Source: a virus (lineage: Duplodnaviria > Heunggongvirae > Uroviricota > Caudoviricetes). Taken from it: a stretch of 10,043 nucleotides of DNA. Under the pieces are notes generated by a model. It was not told the origin of the DNA. It was given only the letters and a program-made list of their open reading frames with translations, and did no database searches. A program made the position numbers and the translations under genes. Below are positions 1-10,043 of the stretch, piece after piece. Position 1 is the stretch's first letter; each line of letters opens with the position of its first letter. The stretch spans positions 1-10,043 of the IMG/VR virus record IMGVR_UViG_2639762982_000013; one strand, 5' to 3'.

Positions 1-516
1 ATGAAATTTAAAAAATGTCTTCTGCCTGTGGCAATGTTAGCGTCATTCACTCTGGCAGGATGCCAGTCAAATGCTGACGATCATGCCGCCGATGTTTATC
101 AAACCGATCAACTGAATACCAAACAAGAAACTAAAACCGTTAATATTATTTCCATTCTTCCCGCAAAAGTTGCCGTAGACAACTCCCAAAATAAACGGAA
201 CGCACAAGCCTTCGGCGCGCTTATTGGCGCAGTCGCTGGCGGTGTTATCGGCCACAACGTCGGTTCTGGCAGCAATTCCGGAACGACGGCAGGGGCAGTT
301 GGCGGCGGAGCTGTAGGCGCGGCAGCGGGTTCTATGGTGAATGATAAAACCTTAGTGGAAGGTGTTTCTTTAACATATAAGGAAGGCACCAAAGTGTATA
401 CCTCTACCCAGGTGGGTAAAGAGTGCCAGTTTACGACAGGTTTAGCCGTTGTTATTACCACAACGTATAACGAAACGCGTATTCAGCCAAATACTAAATG
501 TCCTGAAAAGAGCTAA
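1..516 (+). CDS. yfgH: Outer-membrane lipoprotein with glycine-zipper domain (YfgH-like); host gene
   Basis: 171-aa ORF. Lipoprotein signal peptide with lipobox LAGC (Cys21). Gly/Ala-rich GxxxG zipper segment (GALIGAVAGGVIGHNVG...). Gene symbol from memory of E. coli K-12 yfgH (same length class), not verified. Confidence 0.8.
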   Translation: MKFKKCLLPVAMLASFTLAGCQSNADDHAADVYQTDQLNTKQETKTVNIISILPAKVAVDNSQNKRNAQAFGALIGAVAGGVIGHNVGSGSNSGTTAGAVGGGAVGAAAGSMVNDKTLVEGVSLTYKEGTKVYTSTQVGKECQFTTGLAVVITTTYNETRIQPNTKCPEKS

Positions 517-531
517 TAATCAGGAGGAGTC

Positions 532-1071
532 ATGAAGAAAGTTTTTCTTTGCGCCATCTTGGCCTCCTTAAGCTATCCGGCTATCGCCTCATCATTGCAG
601 GATCAACTCTCTGCTGTAGCAGAAGCTGAACAGCAAGGTAAAAATGAAGAGCAAAGGCAGCATGACGAATGGGTCGCGGAGCGCAACAGGGAAATCCAGC
701 AAGAGAAGCAACGTCGCGCAAATGCCCAGGCCGCCGCTAACAAAAGAGCGGCAACGGCAGCAGCAAATAAGAAAGCTCGTCAGGATAAACTGGACGCCGA
801 AGCCTCTGCGGACAAAAAACGCGATCAAAGTTATGAAGATGAGCTACGCAGCTTAGAGATTCAGAAACAAAAACTGGCGCTGGCGAAAGAAGAAGCCCGC
901 GTTAAGCGAGAAAACGAATTTATCGATCAGGAACTGAAGCACAAAGCTGCGCAAACCGATGTGGTGCAATCTGAAGCTGACGCCAACAGAAATATGACTG
1001 AAGGCGGTCGCGATCTGATGAAAAGCGTGGGCAAAGCAGAAGAGAACAAATCGGACAGCTGGTTTAATTAA
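532..1071 (+). CDS. yfgI: Secreted/periplasmic charged coiled-coil protein (YfgI-like); host gene
   Basis: 179-aa ORF, strong SD AGGAGG 7 nt upstream. Sec signal peptide (…AIA/SS), then K/E/Q/A-rich low-complexity helical region. Synteny with the preceding yfgH-like gene; symbol from memory. Confidence 0.75.
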   Translation: MKKVFLCAILASLSYPAIASSLQDQLSAVAEAEQQGKNEEQRQHDEWVAERNREIQQEKQRRANAQAAANKRAATAAANKKARQDKLDAEASADKKRDQSYEDELRSLEIQKQKLALAKEEARVKRENEFIDQELKHKAAQTDVVQSEADANRNMTEGGRDLMKSVGKAEENKSDSWFN

Positions 1072-1110
1072 TCGATGTTAGTAACTTCAAGCCTATGATT
1101 CTTGAAGATA

Positions 1111-1142
1111 AAAAACCCTCTGTAGTAACAGAGGGTTTTGTT
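1111..1142. terminator. Bidirectional rho-independent terminator downstream of yfgI
   Basis: A5-CCCTCTG-tagtaa-CAGAGGG-T4: 7-bp GC-rich stem with A-tract before and T-tract after, so it is readable on both strands. Confidence 0.6.
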
Positions 1143-1267
1143 CATTCATAGTGCAGGGATTAAAATCATTCCCACTCAATTATTTACGACACGCATAACC
1201 AATTGACTGATAACAACTTTCTGCAACCTGACTTTCACCGTACCGTTTTATATACCGTCACCGAAAA

Positions 1268-1765
1268 TCAGTACCACGATTTTTGCTTCTTCAGTGAATC
1301 GTATTGCTGTTCGCAGGATTCTCCTGCAATCCGATACTTTTCAGCCTCAGCTGCTGTTGCGTTGTAAACTCGATTGCTTTCTTCAAGCATGTCGGCGAGC
1401 ACACCGATGACCTTGCTGGCTGGCGTGCCAGTGGGGAAAGATCCGGTATAGTGTTCGGCGAGTCGCTTGGTTTTGTCAAGCTCGGCGCGCAGGCTGTCAG
1501 CAGCGGCATTAGCATGCTCAGCATCAACACGCGCCACATCGATACGGGATTGTGCTTCACGTTCAATTTGTGTTTTCTCCTGATCACGTTGTGACCTAGC
1601 CTTATCATTAGCCTGTTTCTGATCTTCCTGTGCCTGCGCATACCCGGCGTCGTACTGACGACTGCCGTGTGCATTCCAGGCTACAACTCCTGATATGACC
1701 AGAACAGCAAGCATCGCCATGATAACCAACTGTTTCCAGTATGCTTTTACGAATGCCCAGATCAT
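1268..1765 (-). CDS. Phage i-spanin (Rz-like inner-membrane spanin subunit)
   Basis: 165 aa with N-terminal TM helix, then charged helical periplasmic domain. Start overlaps endolysin stop (ATGA). Last gene of the lysis cassette and contains an embedded lipoprotein ORF. Confidence 0.7.
1291..1539 (-). CDS. Phage o-spanin (Rz1-like outer-membrane lipoprotein), embedded in the i-spanin gene in another frame
   Basis: Internal Met of the 127-aa alternate-frame ORF gives [17 protein letters not shown]…: signal peptide plus lipobox LTAC, then a Pro/Ser-rich short mature region, as in lambda Rz1. Fully nested in 1268-1765. Exact start uncertain (alternative Met at 1524); no strong SD. Confidence 0.55.
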   Translation of the reverse strand: MWRVLMLSMLMPLLTACAPSLTKPSDSPNTIPDLSPLARQPARSSVCSPTCLKKAIEFTTQQQLRLKSIGLQENPANSNTIH

Positions 1766-2391
1766 ACCGCCAGCGCCTTACTGGCAGTGATGTACCGAGC
1801 GCGCCGGTCGTCGATGCCGTTCCTGCCACCATTGATAATCAGAGTTACACGTGCAATATCGCCGGTATACTTCATGCAACCTTTGCTGGAGAAGAACCAC
1901 GCCGCGCTACGAGCCGCGTATTCGTCCTGCGCCAACAGTTCAGGATTCTCCAGCAGGTCCACTTTCAGGCCGTTTCCGCAATCACGATAGTTATTCAAAC
2001 CGGTAATCTGGATAAGTCCGCGGCCACGGTAATTCCAGCCATCACCAGAGGCATTGTTCCCCATGCGTTTGCTGTACACCAGATTGGCGATCGCTCTCTG
2101 GCGCTCGAGTGGCAATGGTGGTTCACCAGCACGGCGACCAAGTGCATTAGCCTGTCCCTGAGTGAGACGCCCAGCCCGAACGAAGTTAGCCAGTCCGGTG
2201 ACGCTGTAGTTGAAATTTTCCTGCAACCGGGTGAATCCACCAGACTCATGCCCGACCTGAGCAATAAACATTGCCTGATCTTCAGCTTTGCTGATACCAA
2301 ACTCTTTCATCGCAGAAGTTATATGCGAGAACCAGCGTGCGGCCAGCGCCTCGCTAATACCAGCAGCTCGCTGGAATTGTTTAATCTCCAT
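1762..2391 (-). CDS. Phage endolysin, glycoside hydrolase family 19 (chitinase class I-like)
   Basis: 209 aa. Motifs [21 protein letters not shown] and AAWFF typical of GH19 phage lysins. SD GAGG 8 nt upstream. Flanked by membrane proteins and spanins. Confidence 0.9.
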
Positions 2392-2689
2392 GTTTAGACC
2401 TCGTTATTTTAAAAATCTGCACGACGTTACCGCGCGTTTTAATAACCGCAGCTAGCATGACAGCGTTGATAATGACCTCAGATAAATCCACAGCCATTGG
2501 CGTACGTAACCAGATTGCATAGGCGACACGAACAGGAATACTGGCCGCAGCAACAATCAGGAAATAAGCAAGCCATCCTCCCCACCTTCGGTGTTGAGAG
2601 CCGTTACGCCGGAATGTGACAACGCGAATTGCTATGCCAGTGCAAATAACTGCATTGGTGATAAGCAAAAAAAACTCATGCGTTACCAT
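2381..2689 (-). CDS. Lysis-cassette small membrane protein (holin/antiholin-like)
   Basis: 102 aa with 2-3 predicted TM helices. SD GGAG 8 nt upstream. Overlaps the upstream gene by 14 nt and the endolysin start by 11 nt, indicating translational coupling. Confidence 0.55.
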
Positions 2690-3089
2690 CGTCTTTTCTC
2701 CCCGGAATTAACTCGCGTGGATTATCGGAACGGTGATAAAGCCATATACCAATTCGCACAGCGACAATTGACGACACAAATGCGCCAGCAGAGAAGACGA
2801 TCCCTTTCTCGAAAGAGTCCTGCGTGATGGTAGGGATCAGGCTGGCTACACCGATAAGGATGGATGCTGTAGGTTTGTAAAAGAGAAGGCCGCAGAGGAA
2901 GCTGAGCATAGACAGGAGAACCCGGCGATGAATGGGATACTCGATGGCTGAGGTAACAAAAATTACCGCCCCAGCCAAAGCTCCCAAAGCCACCTCTGGA
3001 GGAACCCCTGCTATCACCGCAGCAAGAGAACTCGCACTAAGCCACTGATTTAAAGACTCACTGGTTAGCTGAACTGACATAAAAAACAC
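2676..3089 (-). CDS. Putative holin (multi-pass membrane protein), first gene of lysis cassette
   Basis: 137 aa with 3-4 hydrophobic helices and a charged C-terminus. Position directly upstream of the endolysin. Start may be the second ATG at 3080. Family not recognised. Confidence 0.55.
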   Translation of the reverse strand: MFFMSVQLTSESLNQWLSASSLAAVIAGVPPEVALGALAGAVIFVTSAIEYPIHRRVLLSMLSFLCGLLFYKPTASILIGVASLIPTITQDSFEKGIVFSAGAFVSSIVAVRIGIWLYHRSDNPRELIPGRKDDGNA

Positions 3090-3185
3090 CGTTTAATGTG
3101 CATAAAGAATCCCCTTAGTTGGTTAGTTCATCATACACAATAAACCATATGTGGATTAAACTTGATCTGATAATTCTTAACGAAA

Positions 3186-3200
3186 TTACCTTAAAGGTGA
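3186..3200. promoter_or_regulatory. Palindromic site A (TTACC-TTAAA-GGTGA), member of a five-copy family
   Basis: Lies in the 212-bp gap between the tail fibre and the lysis operon, about 100 bp upstream of the holin start. One mismatch from a perfect palindrome. Flank ATATC is shared with site C. Confidence 0.4.
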
Positions 3201-3301
3201 TATCATAAATATCCTTGTGTCATTTAAAATTAGAGTTAGGGCATGATAGCCAACATACAATATTTGCGTTTTCTCGCTGCATTCCTTGGCGATGACTTCT
3301 C

Positions 3302-5065
3302 TTAAACAACAATTTTAAGGAAATTTGAAGCATCCTTATAGATGGTGCCCGCGGTGGCGCCGTTTATCTCCTCAAGCGTTTTTACATTCTTCAAAACCAC
3401 CTTGCCATCTTCCAGAAATTCAATGCATGGTGCGTCGTTGTTCATGTTTATTTTCAACGAACCAACAGCACTACCTCCGTTTCCGCTTATCCATTCAAGT
3501 GACGCAATAGGAAGTGCATTGCCGTTGTGATCTGTCCCTTGTAGCAAGATCCTTCCAGTTCCTACCCCTGGTATTCTGATAGCTGCGCGACCACCATCCT
3601 CTAAAACTACTTCCAAAATTTCTTTAGGATATTTTGTGTGCACTCCTACACGCGTCAGCGAACCACCACCACCAGGGACGACGGCAATACCTGGAATAAG
3701 CGATTCTGCAAAAAGCATCACTGAGTCTTTATGTGGATTGATTGCTGGCTTATCGTCATTAGTGCCGCTCCCTATCGCAATCGAACCACCATAAGCCTGA
3801 ATATTCTTACCTACAGCAAAAGAGCCATCTCCTGCCGCGCGAGTTCGATATCCAATGGCTGCCGCACCAATGCCATCACTTGCAACCCCGCCGGGGTCTG
3901 TAGTGTATCCCGGTCTGGCTTGTGTATAATAACCTGTTGCAAAAGCCGCCCTTGAAAGCGCTTCCGTTTCTTCACAGAATGCGGCAGATTTTGCTCCAAG
4001 AGCAATGACATTTTTCCCAAATGCAAAAGAGCAGTACCCCTCAGCATTTGGTGAGGTAATATGATCTGGGTCCCCAGTGGCAGAACCAGCACCACCGGCA
4101 ATAGATGCCACGCCGTACGTAACGCAGTCATGCCCGAAAGTTGTGGTGTATACCGCGAATGACGCACCGTTTCTGTTAAAAGATACTGAGTAATCACCGA
4201 TAAGAGCCGGGTTACACCATGAATTTCTCGGTGTAGGCAAGCCTCTCCAGAAGTTCTTTTCATCGTCAAGTGGTAGGAGATCGGCACCACCAATTCTCAG
4301 CCAACCTTTATCCTTATCAAAAGAAAAAGTGACGCCATCGGTTAAAGTAGATCCAACCGGTATACCGTAATTAACTTTTGTGCCAATCCTCTTAAGCCCG
4401 TCAGGTTGCGCCAGCAATAACAGAACATCTGCTGCACTACCGCTCTCAGGCAAGACCATAATGGACTCACCTGCATAATCATATGCATGGATCATATTTG
4501 CACGTTCTGCAGCAGGAGGGAGTTGCCGCGTAAATGACTCTGGAACCCTTAACGTGTGCAGATAGTTGTTGTTACTAATCGTGTCTACATAATTTTTAGT
4601 GGCAGCATCCTGCGGGTCTCGTGGGTCGCGCAGGTTGCGAATGTAATTCCCCAGCGCGTCGTACCAGTTAGCGATGGTTGATGGCTTGCGCAGCGCCAAG
4701 GCAAACCAACTGCGAACCTGCTGGATCAGCATCGTCAGTTTATCGAATGCGTCTTCATGCACCTCAGCGAAGAACTTACCCTGGTTGCGCAGATCGGTAT
4801 CCTGCGTAACCGGTAGCTCTCTTGATATAGAAATCTGATAACCGTTAGCCAACGCCTTCGACAGAATTACATTGCCGCCGTTATACCCTCCCGCACCAGT
4901 GACTATGTAATCAGTATCAAGAATCAGCTCTGTGATGTTCTCGTTCAGGTCAACAACCTGCACTACTAAATCAGATTTCTGGAAAATCCTGAAGGTATAA
5001 GGGAATGCCGTTGTAACACCGTTACCTGTGTATTCGTTGTGGTCAACTTCGGTTGAGACCGTCAT
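3302..5065 (-). CDS. Phage tail fibre / tailspike protein
   Basis: 587 aa. The N-terminal ~150 aa (MTVSTEVDHNEYTGNGVTTAFPYTF…DYIVTG) resembles the conserved T7 gp17-type virion-attachment domain. The C-terminal two thirds are Gly/Ala/Ser-rich with repeated beta-strand-like motifs (SFAVGKN, SIAIGSGT, IGAAAIGY), as in trimeric receptor-binding domains. Confidence 0.85.
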   Translation of the reverse strand: MTVSTEVDHNEYTGNGVTTAFPYTFRIFQKSDLVVQVVDLNENITELILDTDYIVTGAGGYNGGNVILSKALANGYQISISRELPVTQDTDLRNQGKFFAEVHEDAFDKLTMLIQQVRSWFALALRKPSTIANWYDALGNYIRNLRDPRDPQDAATKNYVDTISNNNYLHTLRVPESFTRQLPPAAERANMIHAYDYAGESIMVLPESGSAADVLLLLAQPDGLKRIGTKVNYGIPVGSTLTDGVTFSFDKDKGWLRIGGADLLPLDDEKNFWRGLPTPRNSWCNPALIGDYSVSFNRNGASFAVYTTTFGHDCVTYGVASIAGGAGSATGDPDHITSPNAEGYCSFAFGKNVIALGAKSAAFCEETEALSRAAFATGYYTQARPGYTTDPGGVASDGIGAAAIGYRTRAAGDGSFAVGKNIQAYGGSIAIGSGTNDDKPAINPHKDSVMLFAESLIPGIAVVPGGGGSLTRVGVHTKYPKEILEVVLEDGGRAAIRIPGVGTGRILLQGTDHNGNALPIASLEWISGNGGSAVGSLKINMNNDAPCIEFLEDGKVVLKNVKTLEEINGATAGTIYKDASNFLKIVV

Positions 5066-5169
5066 GTTAAATCTCCAGATAGTCGCAGCACCCGTTGCGC
5101 CGCATATCTGGTTATTCTATTACCTGAAAAACCACATATGGATAGAAAGACTATAAATACCAATAGATA

Positions 5170-5184
5170 TTACCTTTCGGGTAA
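5170..5184. promoter_or_regulatory. Palindromic site B (TTACC-TTTCG-GGTAA)
   Basis: Perfect 5-bp inverted arms with a 5-nt spacer in the divergent region between the tail fibre gene and the small SOS-box gene. Confidence 0.4.
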
Positions 5185-5221
5185 TTTGCAAAACGTGCTG
5201 GATAGCAAACAAATTATTTGA

Positions 5222-5241
5222 TACTGTATATTTATACAGTT
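5222..5241. promoter_or_regulatory. LexA (SOS) box
   Basis: TACTGTATATTTATACAGTT matches the E. coli LexA consensus TACTGTATATATATACAGTA at 18/20, with CTGT-N8-ACAG intact. Located 20 bp upstream of the ATG at 5261 and overlapping a plausible -10. Confidence 0.7.
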
Positions 5242-5260
5242 ATTGCATGGAGAAGATAAG

Positions 5261-5518
5261 ATGCAGCAGTATCACTATCCACTGGAAGACGGATTTACCG
5301 AAAGGATTCACACGCCGGGAGGCGTCAGGTCACTGGTGGAGGGATCGCACTTGATGAAATTACTCCGGGATCTCGATAAGGATGGATTTAATGTCGATGG
5401 CCCACTTGCCGAACTGACTGCACTGATTAACTACGTCACCAGCTCACAGATGTCTATGCTGGATCTGCAAACACATCTCGACTATTGTGCCGAACAATTA
5501 CGAAAACAAACCCGGTAA
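5261..5518 (+). CDS. Small SOS-regulated protein, candidate Tum-like antirepressor (homologous to C-terminal domain of the AntA protein at 6669-7325)
   Basis: 85 aa from the ATG at 5261 with SD GGAGAAG; the ORF track extends it to a TTG at 5243. Roughly 40% identity by eye to the last ~80 aa of the 218-aa AntA-domain protein (IH[TS]P[GS]GV…LM.LL..L..DG..V.G..AELT…D.QTH..Y). LexA box immediately upstream. Confidence 0.6.
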   Translation: MQQYHYPLEDGFTERIHTPGGVRSLVEGSHLMKLLRDLDKDGFNVDGPLAELTALINYVTSSQMSMLDLQTHLDYCAEQLRKQTR

Positions 5519-5522
5519 ATTT

Positions 5523-5542
5523 AAAGGCCGCAAGAGCGGCCT
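5523..5542. terminator. Bidirectional rho-independent terminator between convergent genes
   Basis: AGGCCGC-aaga-GCGGCCT stem-loop with A-rich 5' flank and T-rich 3' flank. Sits between the + gene ending at 5518 and the - gene ending at 5541. Confidence 0.6.
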
Positions 5543-6269
5543 ATCGTTTCGCTTTGTGCTCGTCCCAGCACGTTTTGCACCATGCCATTAAGCCATCCGC
5601 ATTTTGATTATTAGGGTAAAAGCTTGTTCGTTTTCTGCGGACATTACAAATTGGGCACCACTTCATATGGCGTGTATTCTTTGGGCCATCGAGACACCTT
5701 GCACACCACTTAGTCAATCCATCTGGATTTTTTGACGATTTCCTGAATTTTTCATATGGTAGGTTTATTCTGCATCGCAAGCACTGCTTGCTACCACTTG
5801 AAACTCTGTTAGCTGATTCTTCTTTTGGCGGCGATACAGAAGGTATTCTTGCTGGCTCTGATACTGCCTGAGGTGCTTTTTTAGATGACTGAGACGATAT
5901 GTCATCACCAGGGAATCTTCCATGATATGCCGGACGCGTTGACACTCCAGGTGGAAGCTCAGCTGTAAACGGCTTTGGCTGAATCAGTTGCCTCTCTTTT
6001 GCTAACTCCTGCTGTTTATAATATGTCTGGATTACCGCACTATCATAAGCAGGAGGTGCGGAAATATTAGGCGCATTACCTCCAGTTTTTTGAAACTGAG
6101 TAGAGGTGTGTTCTATCACCTGTGTACGATTAATCGTTATCTCCCCATCTTCGGTCTTTATCGTTTTGTTATGATTAACGACCGTACGATCAGAGATCTT
6201 AGTCTTGTTCTGGTTGATAACGTAAATAATCACCGCAACCACACCAACAACTATCCAGAAAACTTCCAT
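5541..6269 (-). CDS. Membrane-anchored protein with tandem C4 zinc-ribbon repeats (function unknown)
   Basis: 242 aa. N-terminal TM helix (residues ~4-20) followed by K/R (positive-inside), a Pro/Ser/Gln-rich linker, then two copies of CxxC-x16-DGL-x2-WC-x2-C. SD GAGGA 8 nt upstream of the ATG. Confidence 0.7.
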   Translation of the reverse strand: MEVFWIVVGVVAVIIYVINQNKTKISDRTVVNHNKTIKTEDGEITINRTQVIEHTSTQFQKTGGNAPNISAPPAYDSAVIQTYYKQQELAKERQLIQPKPFTAELPPGVSTRPAYHGRFPGDDISSQSSKKAPQAVSEPARIPSVSPPKEESANRVSSGSKQCLRCRINLPYEKFRKSSKNPDGLTKWCARCLDGPKNTRHMKWCPICNVRRKRTSFYPNNQNADGLMAWCKTCWDEHKAKR

Positions 6270-6289
6270 TGCTTTTCCTCACAATAACA

Positions 6290-6304
6290 TTACCTTAAAG
6301 GTAA
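6290..6304. promoter_or_regulatory. Palindromic site C (TTACC-TTAAA-GGTAA)
   Basis: Perfect palindrome about 10 bp upstream of the SD of the minus-strand zinc-ribbon gene. Core identical to sites A and D. Confidence 0.4.
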
Positions 6305-6382
6305 TATCTTGCTTTCAGGTGATCAAGCGTTAAACGCAATCAACCAAATACGGTTGATTTTAATATTTCTTCGCGTTTATCA

Positions 6383-6397
6383 TTACCTTTGCGGTAA
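6383..6397. promoter_or_regulatory. Palindromic site E (TTACC-TTTGC-GGTAA)
   Basis: Same arms as the other sites, with a spacer like site B. Lies just upstream of the structured leader preceding the AntA gene. Confidence 0.35.
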
Positions 6398-6488
6398 ATT
6401 TACATTGCACTCCTCTTGTGCCATAGTAATCGGGCACTGGCAAAATCCAGTGCCGGGATTGGTCTCCCGGATTACTAAGTGGCGCATA

Positions 6489-6510
6489 CCACGCCAGACG
6501 TGGTTTTTTT
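6489..6510 (+). terminator. Putative intrinsic terminator / attenuator hairpin in the leader of the AntA-like gene
   Basis: CCACG-ccaga-CGTGG followed by T7. Preceded by two GC-rich hairpins (6433-6454 and 6453-6470) that share bases, so alternative pairings are possible. Confidence 0.4.
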
Positions 6511-6668
6511 ATGCGTATAGCACAGTCATGCCAGAATTATGGTGGGCTGAATGGGGGTCCGAAAGGACGCCGGTACCACTTAGGCCGGTAAGACCAACTC
6601 CGTTCAGTTCACCACCATCTGATTGGTCTCAGCGGTGGTGATGTAATTCGCTAAGTGGAGACGCCATC

Positions 6669-7325
6669 ATGAACGCTCAACTCATCCCCGTATTCAACGG
6701 CACTATATCTAACGAAACAGCCCTACTTTGTAATGCCCGCGATCTGCACGCTTTTTTAGGTGTTAAAAAGGTGTTTGCAGCATGGATTACAAATCGCATA
6801 TCAGAATACGAATTCATTGAAAATCAAGACTATATTTTGCTTTCCAATTTGGGAAAGCAAACATCTGGTAGAGGCGGCCACAACCGCAAAGAGTACCACC
6901 TCACCCTTGATACAGCCAAAGAGCTGGCGATGGTCGAGCGTAACGAAAAAGGTCGCCAGGTGCGACGCTACTTCATTGAATGCGAGAAACGTTTAAGACA
7001 ACAAGAAACAAAAGTGGAGAAGGTCTTGTCAGGCTTCATGCCCGCCATTATGGAGGCGATCAAGCTGGAAGACAAAAAAGAATACAGCGCCCCACTGAAG
7101 CCCGGCTACCGCAGCCTGATTCATTCGCCGTCTGGTGTTCTTGGACTGACGGAGAACTCACTGCTGATGAATCTGCTGAACCAGTTACAGGACGACGGGC
7201 ATGACGTATCGGGCGCGGCGGCGGAGCTGACCACCATGTTCTGCTACATCGTCGGTGTGAGCAAATGCCTGCGTGATATCCAGACGCACGCGGAGTACAT
7301 CAGCGACAAAGCAGGATTCTTCTGA
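6669..7325 (+). CDS. Phage antirepressor-like protein, N-terminal AntA-type domain with a C-terminal domain shared with the 5261-5518 protein
   Basis: 218 aa, SD GGAG 8 nt upstream. N-terminal region ([10 protein letters not shown]…[33 protein letters not shown]) matches the AntA/pRha-type antirepressor N-domain pattern. C-terminal ~80 aa is paralogous to the small SOS-box protein. Confidence 0.8.
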
Positions 7326-7391
7326 CGGGCGGCGGCACAGGGATGTGCCTTTAAAATAATCATTGGCGATGTGATGTAGATTCGCGTAATA

Positions 7392-7406
7392 TTACCTTAA
7401 AGGTAA
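7392..7406. promoter_or_regulatory. Palindromic site D (TTACC-TTAAA-GGTAA)
   Basis: Perfect palindrome about 43 bp upstream of the ATG at 7449, the first gene of the low-GC two-gene module. Confidence 0.4.
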
Positions 7407-7448
7407 ACCTGTTTTTATTTTATACCTGTAACTTACCGGAGATTAAAG

Positions 7449-7775
7449 ATGACAAAACTTGGATTCGTGATGAGAGGTCCGGTAAGAAGCGGAACTCATG
7501 CAAAGCGTAGCAAGAGTCGTATTTTTACTGGTAAGGTTGTAGCACGTAAATCAGCTATTGGCTCGTTCAATAGTGAAAATGCGGCATTGCGCCATATTTT
7601 TATCAGCACAAAGCCAAGAGCATCCGCTGATGTGCATACAATGTCTATTCCTATCACAAAGAATATAAAGCGGATAAAAAAGCTCTCATCTGCAGAATCA
7701 AAAGAGATATCTTTCCGCCAGCTTAACTCATTAGAAACGCATATGAAGGAAGAGGAATTCGATGTTTTTGAGTGA
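7449..7775 (+). CDS. Small highly basic protein, candidate antitoxin / partner of the downstream YafO-like protein
   Basis: 108 aa, SD GGAG 8 nt upstream. Very K/R-rich N-terminal two thirds and an acidic C-terminal tail (EEEFDVFE). Overlaps the downstream gene by 14 nt. No recognisable Phd/YefM or other antitoxin fold from sequence. Confidence 0.5.
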   Translation: MTKLGFVMRGPVRSGTHAKRSKSRIFTGKVVARKSAIGSFNSENAALRHIFISTKPRASADVHTMSIPITKNIKRIKKLSSAESKEISFRQLNSLETHMKEEEFDVFE

Positions 7776-8274
7776 GTATAGCGGGAAGGTTATACCTACT
7801 GGTGAGTTTAAAACTGATGACTTTCTGATTTCGCTAAAAGATGCTTTTAAACAACACTGGCGTCATGGTCATCATCCTGATCTGGGAAAAGATACTCTTT
7901 TTGAAAGACCAGACGAAGTATTAGGCTTCCATCTCAGAAAGGTTCATGTCAATATTGGTGAATATGCATCATATTCATACTCATGTACTGAACAGTGTTG
8001 GGATGAGTGGTCATATGGATTGATTGATGAACAAGGAAATTACAGGCCAAAACCAACCAGTAACGCATATCTCATATATGCAGTCAATGAAATAAGAGAT
8101 GCAGCCTTACTAGCTTATTGGGACCCGCCCGCACACACCAAAGCTAACGCAAAAGTTTGGATGGATTCCGTATTGAATTTCACAAAATTATTTCATGAAC
8201 GAACGAATACAGCCCCACTTAGTAGAAATGTTTATCCGTGGGATTATTCGTACAAATCCAAAAAGCCTGCATAG
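7762..8274 (+). CDS. YafO-like toxin-domain protein (putative ribosome-dependent mRNA interferase)
   Basis: 170 aa with a strong SD (AGGAAGAGGA). From memory of E. coli YafO, the motifs align: PDLGKDTLFE / FHLRKVHVNI / AYLIYAV…AALLAYWDPPAHTKA versus YafO PDIFGRDALYD / FERVAHIHLA / AHLVYCQ…AWLLIAILKPEPHKLA. About 40 aa longer than YafO. Local GC is about 38-40% against about 50% in the flanks. Confidence 0.55.
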   Translation: MFLSEYSGKVIPTGEFKTDDFLISLKDAFKQHWRHGHHPDLGKDTLFERPDEVLGFHLRKVHVNIGEYASYSYSCTEQCWDEWSYGLIDEQGNYRPKPTSNAYLIYAVNEIRDAALLAYWDPPAHTKANAKVWMDSVLNFTKLFHERTNTAPLSRNVYPWDYSYKSKKPA

Positions 8275-8355
8275 TAGTTTTTTATGGACGAAACAAAAGT
8301 CAGTGCTACACTCATTGACGCCACATTGAGGTGGCTTATAGATGGAAATGTCACA

Positions 8356-8517
8356 ATGAAAAAAGCATTTGCTGCACTGTTCGTTTTGTTGTCTCTGGTA
8401 GCTTCAACTCAGGCCTTTGCCGGTCGTTGTCAGCACGACAGCGATACTGCCGCTGACGGCTCCCGCTGCGGTGGGCGTTCTGCGGATTCCCGCCCGGGCG
8501 GTGGTGGCATTCGTTAA
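8356..8517 (+). CDS. Small secreted Cys/Gly-rich peptide (hypothetical)
   Basis: Internal Met of the 77-aa ORF gives MKKAFAALFVLLSLVASTQAFA/GRCQ…, a canonical Sec signal peptide with AxA cleavage site and a ~31-aa mature peptide containing 2 Cys and a Gly-rich tail. Weak SD; local GC is high. Confidence 0.4.
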   Translation: MKKAFAALFVLLSLVASTQAFAGRCQHDSDTAADGSRCGGRSADSRPGGGGIR

Positions 8518-8522
8518 AAACA

Positions 8523-8540
8523 AGGCCGCGAAAGCGGCCT
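8523..8540. terminator. Bidirectional rho-independent terminator (mainly for the minus-strand membrane-protein gene)
   Basis: AGGCCGC-gaaa-GCGGCCT, near-identical stem to the terminator at 5523-5542. On the minus strand it is followed by TTTTTAAC. Confidence 0.55.
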
Positions 8541-8548
8541 GTGACATG

Positions 8549-8845
8549 TCACACTCTTTTTCTGAATGATAGCCATTCGAAAAATGATGACATTCCACCG
8601 CAGACAATAGCAAAGATGATCCCACCAAAGAATAGAAGGCCAGCCTGCCACCACTCCCACCGCCATACATCCACAGCGCCAACCATACCAACAATCGCTC
8701 CAACAAATGGAATATAGCTCACGATGAAAGCAATGGGGGCTGCAATTATCCAGTGCAATCCCCACCATGATTCAAGCCCAGCCATAATTGCTGCCAACTG
8801 AAAAAGACCAACGACGATATAAACAATGAATCCTATCGCTTGCAT
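8549..8845 (-). CDS. Small Trp-rich integral membrane protein (3 predicted TM helices), function unknown
   Basis: 98 aa, hydrophobic throughout with a WRWEWW motif. The terminator lies immediately downstream. A possible 50-codon hydrophobic ORF with a GTG start (8858-9010) sits 14 nt upstream. Confidence 0.6.
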   Translation of the reverse strand: MQAIGFIVYIVVGLFQLAAIMAGLESWWGLHWIIAAPIAFIVSYIPFVGAIVGMVGAVDVWRWEWWQAGLLFFGGIIFAIVCGGMSSFFEWLSFRKRV

Positions 8846-9040
8846 GTAGTTACCTATTTACCCAGTAAAAATCAGAGGCCTCCCCTCAATAAGGCTTGCA
8901 ACAAGAACTACTCCCTGCACAACAAAGATGAACCAGCAAATAGCTTGAGTCTGAGGGTTAAGAAAATATTTGTAGCGGTCAATAAATAACAGTCCACCAG
9001 AAATTATCACACTCAAAATAATTAAAAACACAACACTTCC

Positions 9041-9865
9041 TTATTGCGGAGTGACATCCTGAGGTCGCCACCAGTATGTCTGGTTAAACTCTTTCTTCGA
9101 ACGTTGCTCCATTTTACGCAAATAGCCTGGTGAAAAATACTCCTGCATCTGGTTAAAGATCATGTGATCGAGAGCCGCCTTCAAGTACCAGAGATTCGCA
9201 CCAGGCATCAAACCTTTCCCCAGCTTCACCAGATCACCACCAGTCTGCTCACTCTTCCCTTCCACAGCATTTAACGGTATGCCCTGAGCAATCTTCACTA
9301 CGTCATCAACCAGACCAGCTACCGGGCCAAGCATCGACGCCAGCGCGCCGCTTCCGTACCTAGTGTGATCTGACAATAAAAAGTCACCGTAAAGGCCAAG
9401 ACCACCACCTTTCAGTAGAGCACCAAGCCAAAATTTAGCAGCATCTTCTCCTGTCATCTCGCGAGGATTACGACCAGACGCAAGGTCGTTAAGTTGCTGC
9501 GACAAAGCGCCAAGAATGGTCGTACTGGCAATAAACGTCGCAATATATGCCGCACGCCCACCAGCAGACGGCATACCCATAGCGCGTGACCAGTGACGCA
9601 TAACCACCGAGATAGGGAACGATTTAAACAGGAAAACACTTCTCGTTAATTCACCTTTCCATGTTCCACGCTGAATACCAGAACCGGTTATCAGTTGCTC
9701 ACGTGCTCCCGGTGTAATAACAGCCATATCAACTTCTTCAGTTACGGCACCGAGCAGTTTACGCATTGCCTCAAATTTCACGCGTTCAGGCTCACCAAGA
9801 TGTTTAACTGCTGAATCAGGGATACGCATAATGCTTTCCGGTGTCAGCATCGTATTATTACCGTT
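9041..9865 (-). pseudogene. 3' fragment of a phage protein (possibly virion/ejection-associated) truncated by IS2 insertion
   Basis: The 283-aa ORF listed from 9892 takes its first 9 codons (MSGNIGANP) from inside the IS2 terminal repeat. The native reading frame continues upstream across the IS boundary at 9865/9866, so the N-terminal part of the gene lies beyond IS2. No family recognised. Confidence 0.55.
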
Positions 9866-10043
9866 TGGATTTGCCCCTATATTTCCAGACACCTGTTATC
9901 ACTTAACCCATTACTGGCTTGCTGCCGTAGATATTCCCGTGGCGAGCGATAACCCAGTGCACTATGCGGATGCCATTCGTTATAATGCTCGAATGCCTCT
10001 GCAAGGTTCTTTGCTGCCGTTAACCCGTCTGGTTTGGGCATGA
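9866..10043 (-). mobile_element. IS2 (IS3 family), partial: right terminal repeat and 3' end of the transposase; the element continues beyond the window
   Basis: The reverse complement of 9866-9908 reads GGTTAAGTGATAACAGGTGTCTGGAAATATAGGGGCAAATCCA, which matches the IS2 right end as I recall it. The adjoining ORF encodes an IS3-family transposase C-terminus. Confidence 0.8.
9877..10043 (-). CDS. insD: IS2 transposase OrfB (InsD) C-terminal end, partial
   Basis: Minus-strand translation …[54 protein letters not shown] with stop at 9877-9879. The motif [13 protein letters not shown] is characteristic of the IS3-family integrase C-terminus. The 5' part is outside the window. Confidence 0.8.

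Follow-up and report, generated by a model that had tools for sequence, protein, structure and literature searches.

Organisation and boundaries of the cassette

The stretch of viral DNA analysed here (10,043 nucleotides (nt), positions 1 to 10,043 of the IMG/VR record IMGVR_UViG_2639762982_000013, Caudoviricetes; hereafter referred to as the window) carries at positions 7408-8277 a compact two-gene element, which probably represents a type II toxin-antitoxin (TA) cassette. The downstream gene encodes a predicted toxin of the YafO family, longer than YafO of Escherichia coli, and the upstream gene encodes a small basic protein (hereafter referred to as the partner), the putative antitoxin. The principal features of the element are the following.

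7408-8277, plus strand: exchangeable cassette of low-GC DNA with exactly two genes, delimited by comparison of the flanks and by guanine plus cytosine (GC) content
7449-7775, plus strand: putative antitoxin (partner) gene, 108 residues, isoelectric point (pI) 10.6, PHROG 5933, predicted to be disordered except for a C-terminal helix
7665-7772, plus strand: conserved C-terminal tail of the partner, IKRIKKLSSAESKEISFRQLNSLETHMKEEEFDVFE, residues 73-108 including the predicted helix 89-107, delimited by gapless alignment, the ratio of nonsynonymous to synonymous substitution rates (dN/dS) and the predicted local distance difference test score (pLDDT)
7762-8274, plus strand: predicted long-form YafO-family toxin gene, 170 residues, PHROG 1651

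The two open reading frames (ORFs) overlap by 14 nt (7762-7775) and each has a Shine-Dalgarno sequence of its own, GGAG at 7438-7441, 7 nt upstream of the ATG of the partner, and GAGG at 7752-7755, 6 nt upstream of the ATG of the toxin. The GC content of 7408-8277 is 0.393 as against 0.473 in the remaining window, of which it is the lowest stretch; 1.9% of 870-nt segments have a GC content as low as that of the cassette. An earlier interpretation made from the letters of the DNA alone (hereafter the sequence-only reading) had proposed two translationally coupled genes with their own ribosome-binding sites, lower in GC than their flanks, and both proposals are borne out by these values.

The limits of the element were derived from the phages HEMP4 and TL-2011b, which are 92-98% identical to the flanks in the window (to 7407 or 7360 on the left, from 8278 on the right) and differ in the content between; in HEMP4 the homology runs to 7407 and then ends. 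Since the flanks are shared and the insides differ, the unit of exchange is 7408-8277 with its two genes, and both the palindrome located upstream (described below) and the downstream gene for a 77-residue protein belong to the phage backbone. In HEMP4 (L051, 2579-3232), another pair of ORFs, of 55 and up to 193 residues, occupies the same slot between the same flanks. These ORFs have no match in Pfam or PADLOC and may constitute another cargo module of a different kind; their identity as an alternative YafO-like module is unsupported, the score against the family hidden Markov model (HMM) being a non-significant 6 bits.

The host of the cassette, an E. coli prophage, is best read as a TL-2011b-like temperate phage that carries the module as accessory cargo. 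The left end of the window comprises the bacterial genes yfgH and yfgI followed by the prophage, which corresponds in its lysis, tailspike, accessory and virion genes to the one integrated at that site in E. coli DEC9B. The full module is present in 69 of the 5426 complete E. coli genomes. A scan of species-representative genomes gave a single locus; the loci compared below (51 in number) were therefore obtained from viral contigs and by looking up exact proteins.

Among the 54 long-form toxin ORFs of the fetched loci, 50 are preceded by a tail-bearing ORF that ends at the toxin start, and in 44 the overlap is again 14 nt; in the other four, the most distantly related ones, small ORFs of 57-84 residues are still found upstream. 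The pair is found in Escherichia, Salmonella, Serratia, Enterobacter and other genera with differing neighbours and travels as a unit between prophage contexts, and the loci examined place the long-form subfamily among the accessory genes of prophages and temperate phages. Conservation of a bicistronic, co-oriented and tightly linked pair as a unit agrees with what is generally taken to characterise type II modules. In some prophages one accessory region holds two divergent YafO-like modules: in L008 and L012, one of the window type on one strand and one of the type of phage EC.W1-9 on the other; in L031, a clade-3 module and a TL-2011b-type module. Minus-strand modules occur in L008 (toxin at approximately 6581-7087 in reverse-strand coordinates), L012 and L031.

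The predicted toxin and its partner

The YafO family belongs to the BECR-fold RelE/ParE superfamily, its activity being messenger RNA (mRNA) degradation and its gene order antitoxin-first (PMC11980606, Table 1), and yafNO of E. coli is an experimentally proven TA pair in which YafO cleaves translated mRNA (PMC2814082). The 170-residue protein of the window matches the Pfam family YafO_toxin (PF13957) with 19.7 bits (E 9.5e-4) over profile positions 7-100 of 101; nothing relevant was found for it in NCBIfam or PADLOC. All 21 long-form relatives, from three clades and at 38-82% identity, match PF13957 alone (best 1.7e-5), and cluster P0009 has a precomputed match to PF13957. The same family is matched by 27 of the 42 near-full-length members of the wider family that were aligned (best 6.8e-23). 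When the long-form alignment was compared by hhalign with a canonical one that includes E. coli YafO, the probability was 99.0% and the E-value 2.8e-18 over 119 columns. The protein is assigned on this homology, confirmed at the level of profiles, to the YafO family as a long-form toxin, and the likeness to YafO and the additional length (170 as against 132 residues) pointed out by the sequence-only reading are upheld. By homology with its family it most likely arrests translation by mRNA cleavage. The long form is uncommon: a profile search of 1.84 billion representatives returned just 58 proteins, counted at 50% identity and mostly of 160-200 residues. The toxin already bears a YafO-family name in RefSeq/PGAP, that in annotated E. 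coli records being "type II toxin-antitoxin system YafO family toxin", which makes it less novel than the sequence-only reading assumed.

The residues F29, G42, H62 and H125 are invariant and D44, P50, W80, S100 and Y106 nearly invariant across the 42 family members; all of them are present in the 170-residue protein, and the same core columns are conserved in the canonical YafO proteins. The corresponding motifs are LGKDTLF (residues 41-47), HLRKVHV (57-63), PTSNAYLIYAV (98-108) and PPAH (122-125), and the toxin of the E. coli YafN-YafO pair shares with the 170-residue protein FG[KR]D, [RK]xxH-x-H, TS[DN]xxL[IV]Y and AH. The window protein is the longer of the two, having an insertion at approximately residues 64-97, in which T76, C79, W80, W83 and G86 are conserved, and an extension at the C-terminus (approximately residues 150-170). 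Strong purifying selection acts on the long-form toxin (dN 0.14-0.22, dS saturated). No YafO-family structure was found in the PDB by sequence, the single match being a spurious one to a designed helical repeat.

The partner is very basic and ends in an acidic tail, as the sequence-only reading had described: residues 1-78 have a pI of 12.0 and residues 79-108 a pI of 4.5. It has no match in Pfam (including Phd/YefM), NCBIfam or PADLOC, and PHROG 5933 has no annotated function. A comparison with YafN by BLASTP gave no alignment. The view of the sequence-only reading that the partner is neither YafN nor an antitoxin of the Phd/YefM type is sustained by the lack of a Pfam match and of a BLASTP alignment and by the rank of YafN among shuffled sequences (see below). 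AlphaFold2 (AF2), run on a shallow alignment, predicts disorder except for the helix 89-107, with pLDDT values of approximately 70-81 there alone and 56.2 overall, and predicts no folded N-terminal domain.

Evolutionary comparison places the conserved part of the partner at its C-terminal end. The last 36 residues align without gaps across five toxin clades; the upstream partners range from 59 to 183 residues across the clades and their N-terminal and middle regions are unrelated. The dN/dS of the partner is approximately 0.22-0.27 in the tail and near neutral in the middle; this shows that the 108-residue ORF, which stays open in every related locus, is genuinely coding and that selection acts on its tail. 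The partner has fewer homologues than the toxin, at lower identity (43-49% as against 66-82%), and diverges 2.5-3.6 times faster. A minimal partner of 59-60 residues is found in phage TL-2011b and its relatives, the 59-residue form of TL-2011b consisting of little beyond the tail, and a partner-tail profile search of 5.8 billion proteins for other attached N-terminal domains returned only 59-residue partners and fragments. A natural chimera, P0017, combines a toxin core (residues 1-126) of clade 1 and a C-terminal segment of 44 residues of clade 2 with a partner tail of clade 1; the tail type therefore goes with the toxin core and not with the C-terminal helix of the toxin.

From these comparisons we infer that the partner tail (residues 73-108) is the toxin-binding segment. 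The basic region appears to be the variable, near-neutral and dispensable part of the protein, and the acidic C-terminal helix the conserved and selected one, as would be expected of an ordinary toxin-binding segment. This pattern speaks against the suggestion, made in the sequence-only reading, of a different mode of neutralisation through a nucleic-acid-binding antitoxin, given that the basic region is variable and dispensable and the acidic tail is conserved.

The first 26 codons of the partner (7449-7526) have a dS of 0.33-0.6, as against 0.7 to saturated elsewhere in the gene, and a dN/dS of 0.6-1.1. The low dS suggests nucleotide-level constraint or recent recombination at the left edge of the cassette. 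A conserved leader RNA structure was considered and rejected, the covariation term of RNAalifold being unfavourable with 2 compensated pairs and the single-sequence z-score being -1.4.

The pair resembles yafNO of E. coli in its antitoxin-first order and tight gene coupling and differs from it in the partner, which is not of the Phd/YefM fold and has no detectable homology to YafN. The locations also differ, the window pair lying in a prophage cargo slot and yafNO in the dinB SOS operon, and the palindrome upstream of the window pair is common to other phage genes and is not an antitoxin-specific operator. Further counterparts are the pairs gp45/gp44 of TL-2011b and WYA78249/WYA78250 of EC.W1-9, which share the slot, the kind of phage, the layout, the tail family and the upstream palindrome. 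Their long-form toxins are 33% (TL-2011b) and 47% (EC.W1-9) identical to the window protein; both pairs belong to other clades, and their partners of 59 and 139 residues have N-termini unrelated to that of the window partner. RefSeq names TL-2011b gp44 as a YafO family toxin and the partners as hypothetical proteins.

Plasmid-borne YafO-family toxins of Klebsiella, Enterobacter and Escherichia (e.g. WP_032414405.1, WP_040177225.1) likewise have an upstream partner that is not YafN. These toxins are short-form (136-152 residues), and their partners of 175-205 residues are unrelated to the 108-residue protein and lack the tail. Partner diversity is therefore common in the YafO family, and for much of it the antitoxin seems still to await characterisation. 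In the loci L045, L046, L048 and L049, from Klebsiella and E. coli plasmids, short-form toxins of IncF plasmids lie behind hypothetical proteins of 175-205 residues, some with a signal-peptide-like N-terminus.

The upstream palindrome and transcriptional control

The DNA immediately upstream of the cassette and the related sites elsewhere in the window contain the following elements.

7334-7349, plus strand: possible weak terminator, a GC-rich hairpin GGCACAGGGATGTGCC followed by TTT, from a palindrome search
7363-7392, plus strand: candidate sigma-70 promoter with -35 TTGGCG (7363-7368), an 18-nt spacer and -10 TAATAT (7387-7392), agreeing with the consensus at 8 of 12 positions
7392-7406, no strand assigned: operator-like palindrome TTACCTTAAAGGTAA (TTACC-N5-GGTAA) with 7-base-pair arms, abutting the candidate -10
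3186-3200, 5170-5184, 6290-6304, 6383-6397 and 7392-7406: copies of the palindrome, from a motif count in the window

The palindrome occurs five times in the window, as against 0.14 expected by chance, with exact copies at 5170, 6290, 6383 and 7392 and a copy with one mismatch at 3186. All five are located close to where an accessory transcription unit begins, one of these units being that of the AntA/BRO-N antirepressor gene. Further copies are located at 19002, 20063, 37565 and 40725 of L001, four are found in the DEC9B prophage, and the palindrome is present at least once in 43 of the 51 fetched loci. Its arms are invariant across diverged loci while its centre and flanks vary, and it is also found upstream of modules whose partners have unrelated N-termini. 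The palindrome is, thus, a backbone element common to several transcription units of the accessory region. The sequence-only reading was right about its existence at 7392-7406 and wrong in ascribing it to the module as its own site. The possibility of an antitoxin-specific operator was rejected on account of the multiplicity of the palindrome and its presence before modules with unrelated partners. As the palindrome is common to other accessory units, a phage-wide regulator, rather than the antitoxin, probably controls the module.

The promoter candidate at 7363-7392 scored under the threshold of the promoter scan and is read from the sequence. The hairpin at 7334-7349, directly 3' of the stop codon of the antirepressor-like gene, was not called by the terminator scan because its T-run is too short; the same hairpin occurs at the same place in L024, L025, L027, L034 and L043, and it would possibly separate the module from upstream transcription. 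A second motif, AACCAyATrTGG, is observed approximately 25-40 nt upstream of the palindrome copies at 3186, 5170, 6383 and, in L001, 37565; it is not found at the copy preceding the module (7392).

Interpretation and neighbouring genes

The region 7408-8277 is probably a type II TA cassette that is neutralised through the acidic C-terminal helix of the partner and transcribed from a phage-controlled promoter, and the 108-residue partner is very probably the antitoxin of the 170-residue toxin. Transcription would start from a backbone promoter whose start region holds TTACC-N5-GGTAA, and translational coupling would supply the antitoxin in a fixed ratio to the toxin. The toxin, as a long-form member of the YafO branch (RelE/ParE, BECR-fold), would arrest translation through mRNA cleavage. 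The largely disordered antitoxin may neutralise it by binding of the acidic C-terminal helix and tail (residues 73-108) to the toxin core; for this step the variable basic region that forms its N-terminus and middle would be dispensable. Such a module would be expected to comprise a toxic RNase that the tail neutralises and an antitoxin that is labile, and to bring a biological pay-off in the form of prophage retention or exclusion of other phages.

Several results weigh against this interpretation. Of the two profile comparisons that bear on the YafO assignment, a check proposed by the sequence-only reading, the Pfam search stayed below the PF13957 gathering threshold (19.7 as against 25 bits) and the profile-profile comparison (E 2.8e-18) established the homology; pairwise BLASTP of the 170-residue protein with E. 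coli YafO was not significant, for which reason profiles were used. Structure prediction, likewise proposed, gave poor models of both proteins, with a pLDDT of 49.5 for the toxin, modelled from a shallow alignment, and the low value of 56.2 for the partner, the yield being the predicted C-terminal helix of the latter. A Foldseek search of the PDB with the toxin model found nothing at E <= 0.001, the top match being a HigB2 toxin at E 1.2. Autoregulation of the type II kind is not demonstrated because no DNA-binding domain is recognisable in the partner or in any of its variants, and the palindrome is not partner-specific. The tail of the partner ends in the acidic, aromatic-rich EEEFDVFE, comparable to DDDFNDFKE of YafN, and the YafN-like character of the tail is unproven: with an HMM built from 18 partner tails, YafN came out at rank 1072, amid the 2000 shuffled controls. 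In a post hoc comparison, an ungapped C-anchored score against YafN had a suggestive p-value of approximately 1e-3 in the window clade alone, the values in the other clades being 0.03-0.25. No model of PADLOC-DB v2 was matched by the window proteins or by relatives from other clades, including canonical YafO, and a full-text literature search for the accession numbers of the pair found no match and no experimental report.

A role in defence or in prophage retention is plausible from the location of the module as cargo, the exchange at the slot and the two divergent modules in some prophages. With respect to the first, the module may serve chiefly in abortive infection or superinfection exclusion of other phages, the partner restraining the toxin in the lysogen and infection removing or titrating this labile partner so that the freed toxin stops translation before the invader completes its cycle; this purpose is put forward tentatively. 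It would fit the accessory slot of temperate phages, where the module lies beside lysogenic-conversion and cargo genes (GtrA, Rap1a, OspG-kinase), the exchange of differing cassettes at that slot and the occurrence of divergent paralogous modules in some prophages, as expected of diversifying immunity cargo. TA modules of the RelE superfamily can act in abortive infection (PMC11980606), and a yafO-like pair of the Salmonella prophage mTmII has been proposed, without test, as a resistance factor (PMC9836087). However, the lack of PADLOC matches and of experimental reports mentioned above counts against such a purpose, and a copy of the palindrome also stands before the antirepressor unit; should a repressor bind there, lysogens would keep the module switched off instead of having it on guard. 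An anti-phage role is compatible with the type II TA explanation, being a claim on the purpose of the module and not on its mechanism.

It is doubtful, and a little less probable than defence, that the module mainly serves the prophage itself, whether by addiction and stabilisation or by a phage-timed shut-off of translation in infection or induction, under a regulator that binds TTACC-N5-GGTAA. The location of the palindrome in backbone DNA outside the cassette and next to the candidate -10, its presence before several accessory units including that of the antirepressor, and its occurrence before modules with unrelated partner N-termini, which makes the partner an unlikely binder, are in keeping with such control, as is the retention of the module in a prophage copy interrupted by an insertion sequence (IS). 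However, the candidate promoter agrees only weakly with the consensus (8 of 12 positions), and the retention in a damaged prophage may reflect a recent insertion.

In a broader and unlikely version of phage control, the accessory region would be a series of plug-in slots each headed by TTACC-N5-GGTAA, in which the TA module has ceded control to the phage regulator of the antirepressor unit. Deployment of the toxin would then follow a phage schedule or trigger (superinfection, induction or loss of immunity) in place of a classical autoregulated circuit, the antitoxin would be reduced to a disordered leader and a 36-residue tail, and the exchange of divergent, non-cross-reacting cassettes would amount to an arms race.

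Least probable is the absence of a TA pair, with a 170-residue YafO-fold protein that has lost its toxicity or has another role (e.g. RNA binding) and an unrelated, co-transcribed basic phage protein of 108 residues: the sub-threshold Pfam score, the insertion of 25-30 residues and the C-terminal extension with no assigned role and the lack of a known domain in the partner would permit it, but the residues invariant across the YafO-like family are retained, pairing and overlap are strict in 50 of 54 cases and five clades, the partner tail co-varies with the toxin core, and purifying selection acts on the tail while the rest of the partner drifts.

If the type II TA explanation is correct, it would provide a function for PHROG 5933 and PHROG 1651, both of which are families without functional annotation, and an unannotated antitoxin family for a toxin branch with no solved structure and little biochemistry. 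The YafO branch would then include a small long-form subfamily whose antitoxins keep just a short conserved tail. Neither the swapping of partners among TA families nor the carriage of TA modules by prophages is new, and current views are not overturned by the cassette; its common palindrome and sharp edges make it a tractable case for the exchange and regulation of cargo in temperate phages.

The gene located directly 3' of the cassette (8284-8517, plus strand) is conserved backbone DNA in many related phages. Its product of 77 residues, which in many relatives has a 52-residue form beginning MKMKK, has an apparent signal peptide followed by a conserved Cys-/Gly-rich peptide of 30 residues and belongs to PHROG 3117/14503 ('membrane associated protein'). 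Its candidacy as a third component of the module was ruled out, the gene being backbone DNA beyond the unit of exchange.

Towards the right end of the window, the minus-strand virion-protein ORF (9041-9892) is broken where a multicopy element begins (approximately 9866-10043). Of the 5426 E. coli genomes, 4413 contain this element (median 3 copies), which codes for the C-terminus of a transposase-like ORF. The junction between the virion gene and the multicopy element occurs in none of the complete E. coli genomes of the collection, and the prophage copy in the window is, for this reason, regarded as IS-interrupted. A minus-strand ORF at 5541-6269 encodes a protein of 242 residues (PHROG 6762) with two C-terminal Cys-rich repeats, which matches endonuclease VII/HNH-like and Stc1 zinc-finger models weakly; a copy of the palindrome sits just upstream of its start.

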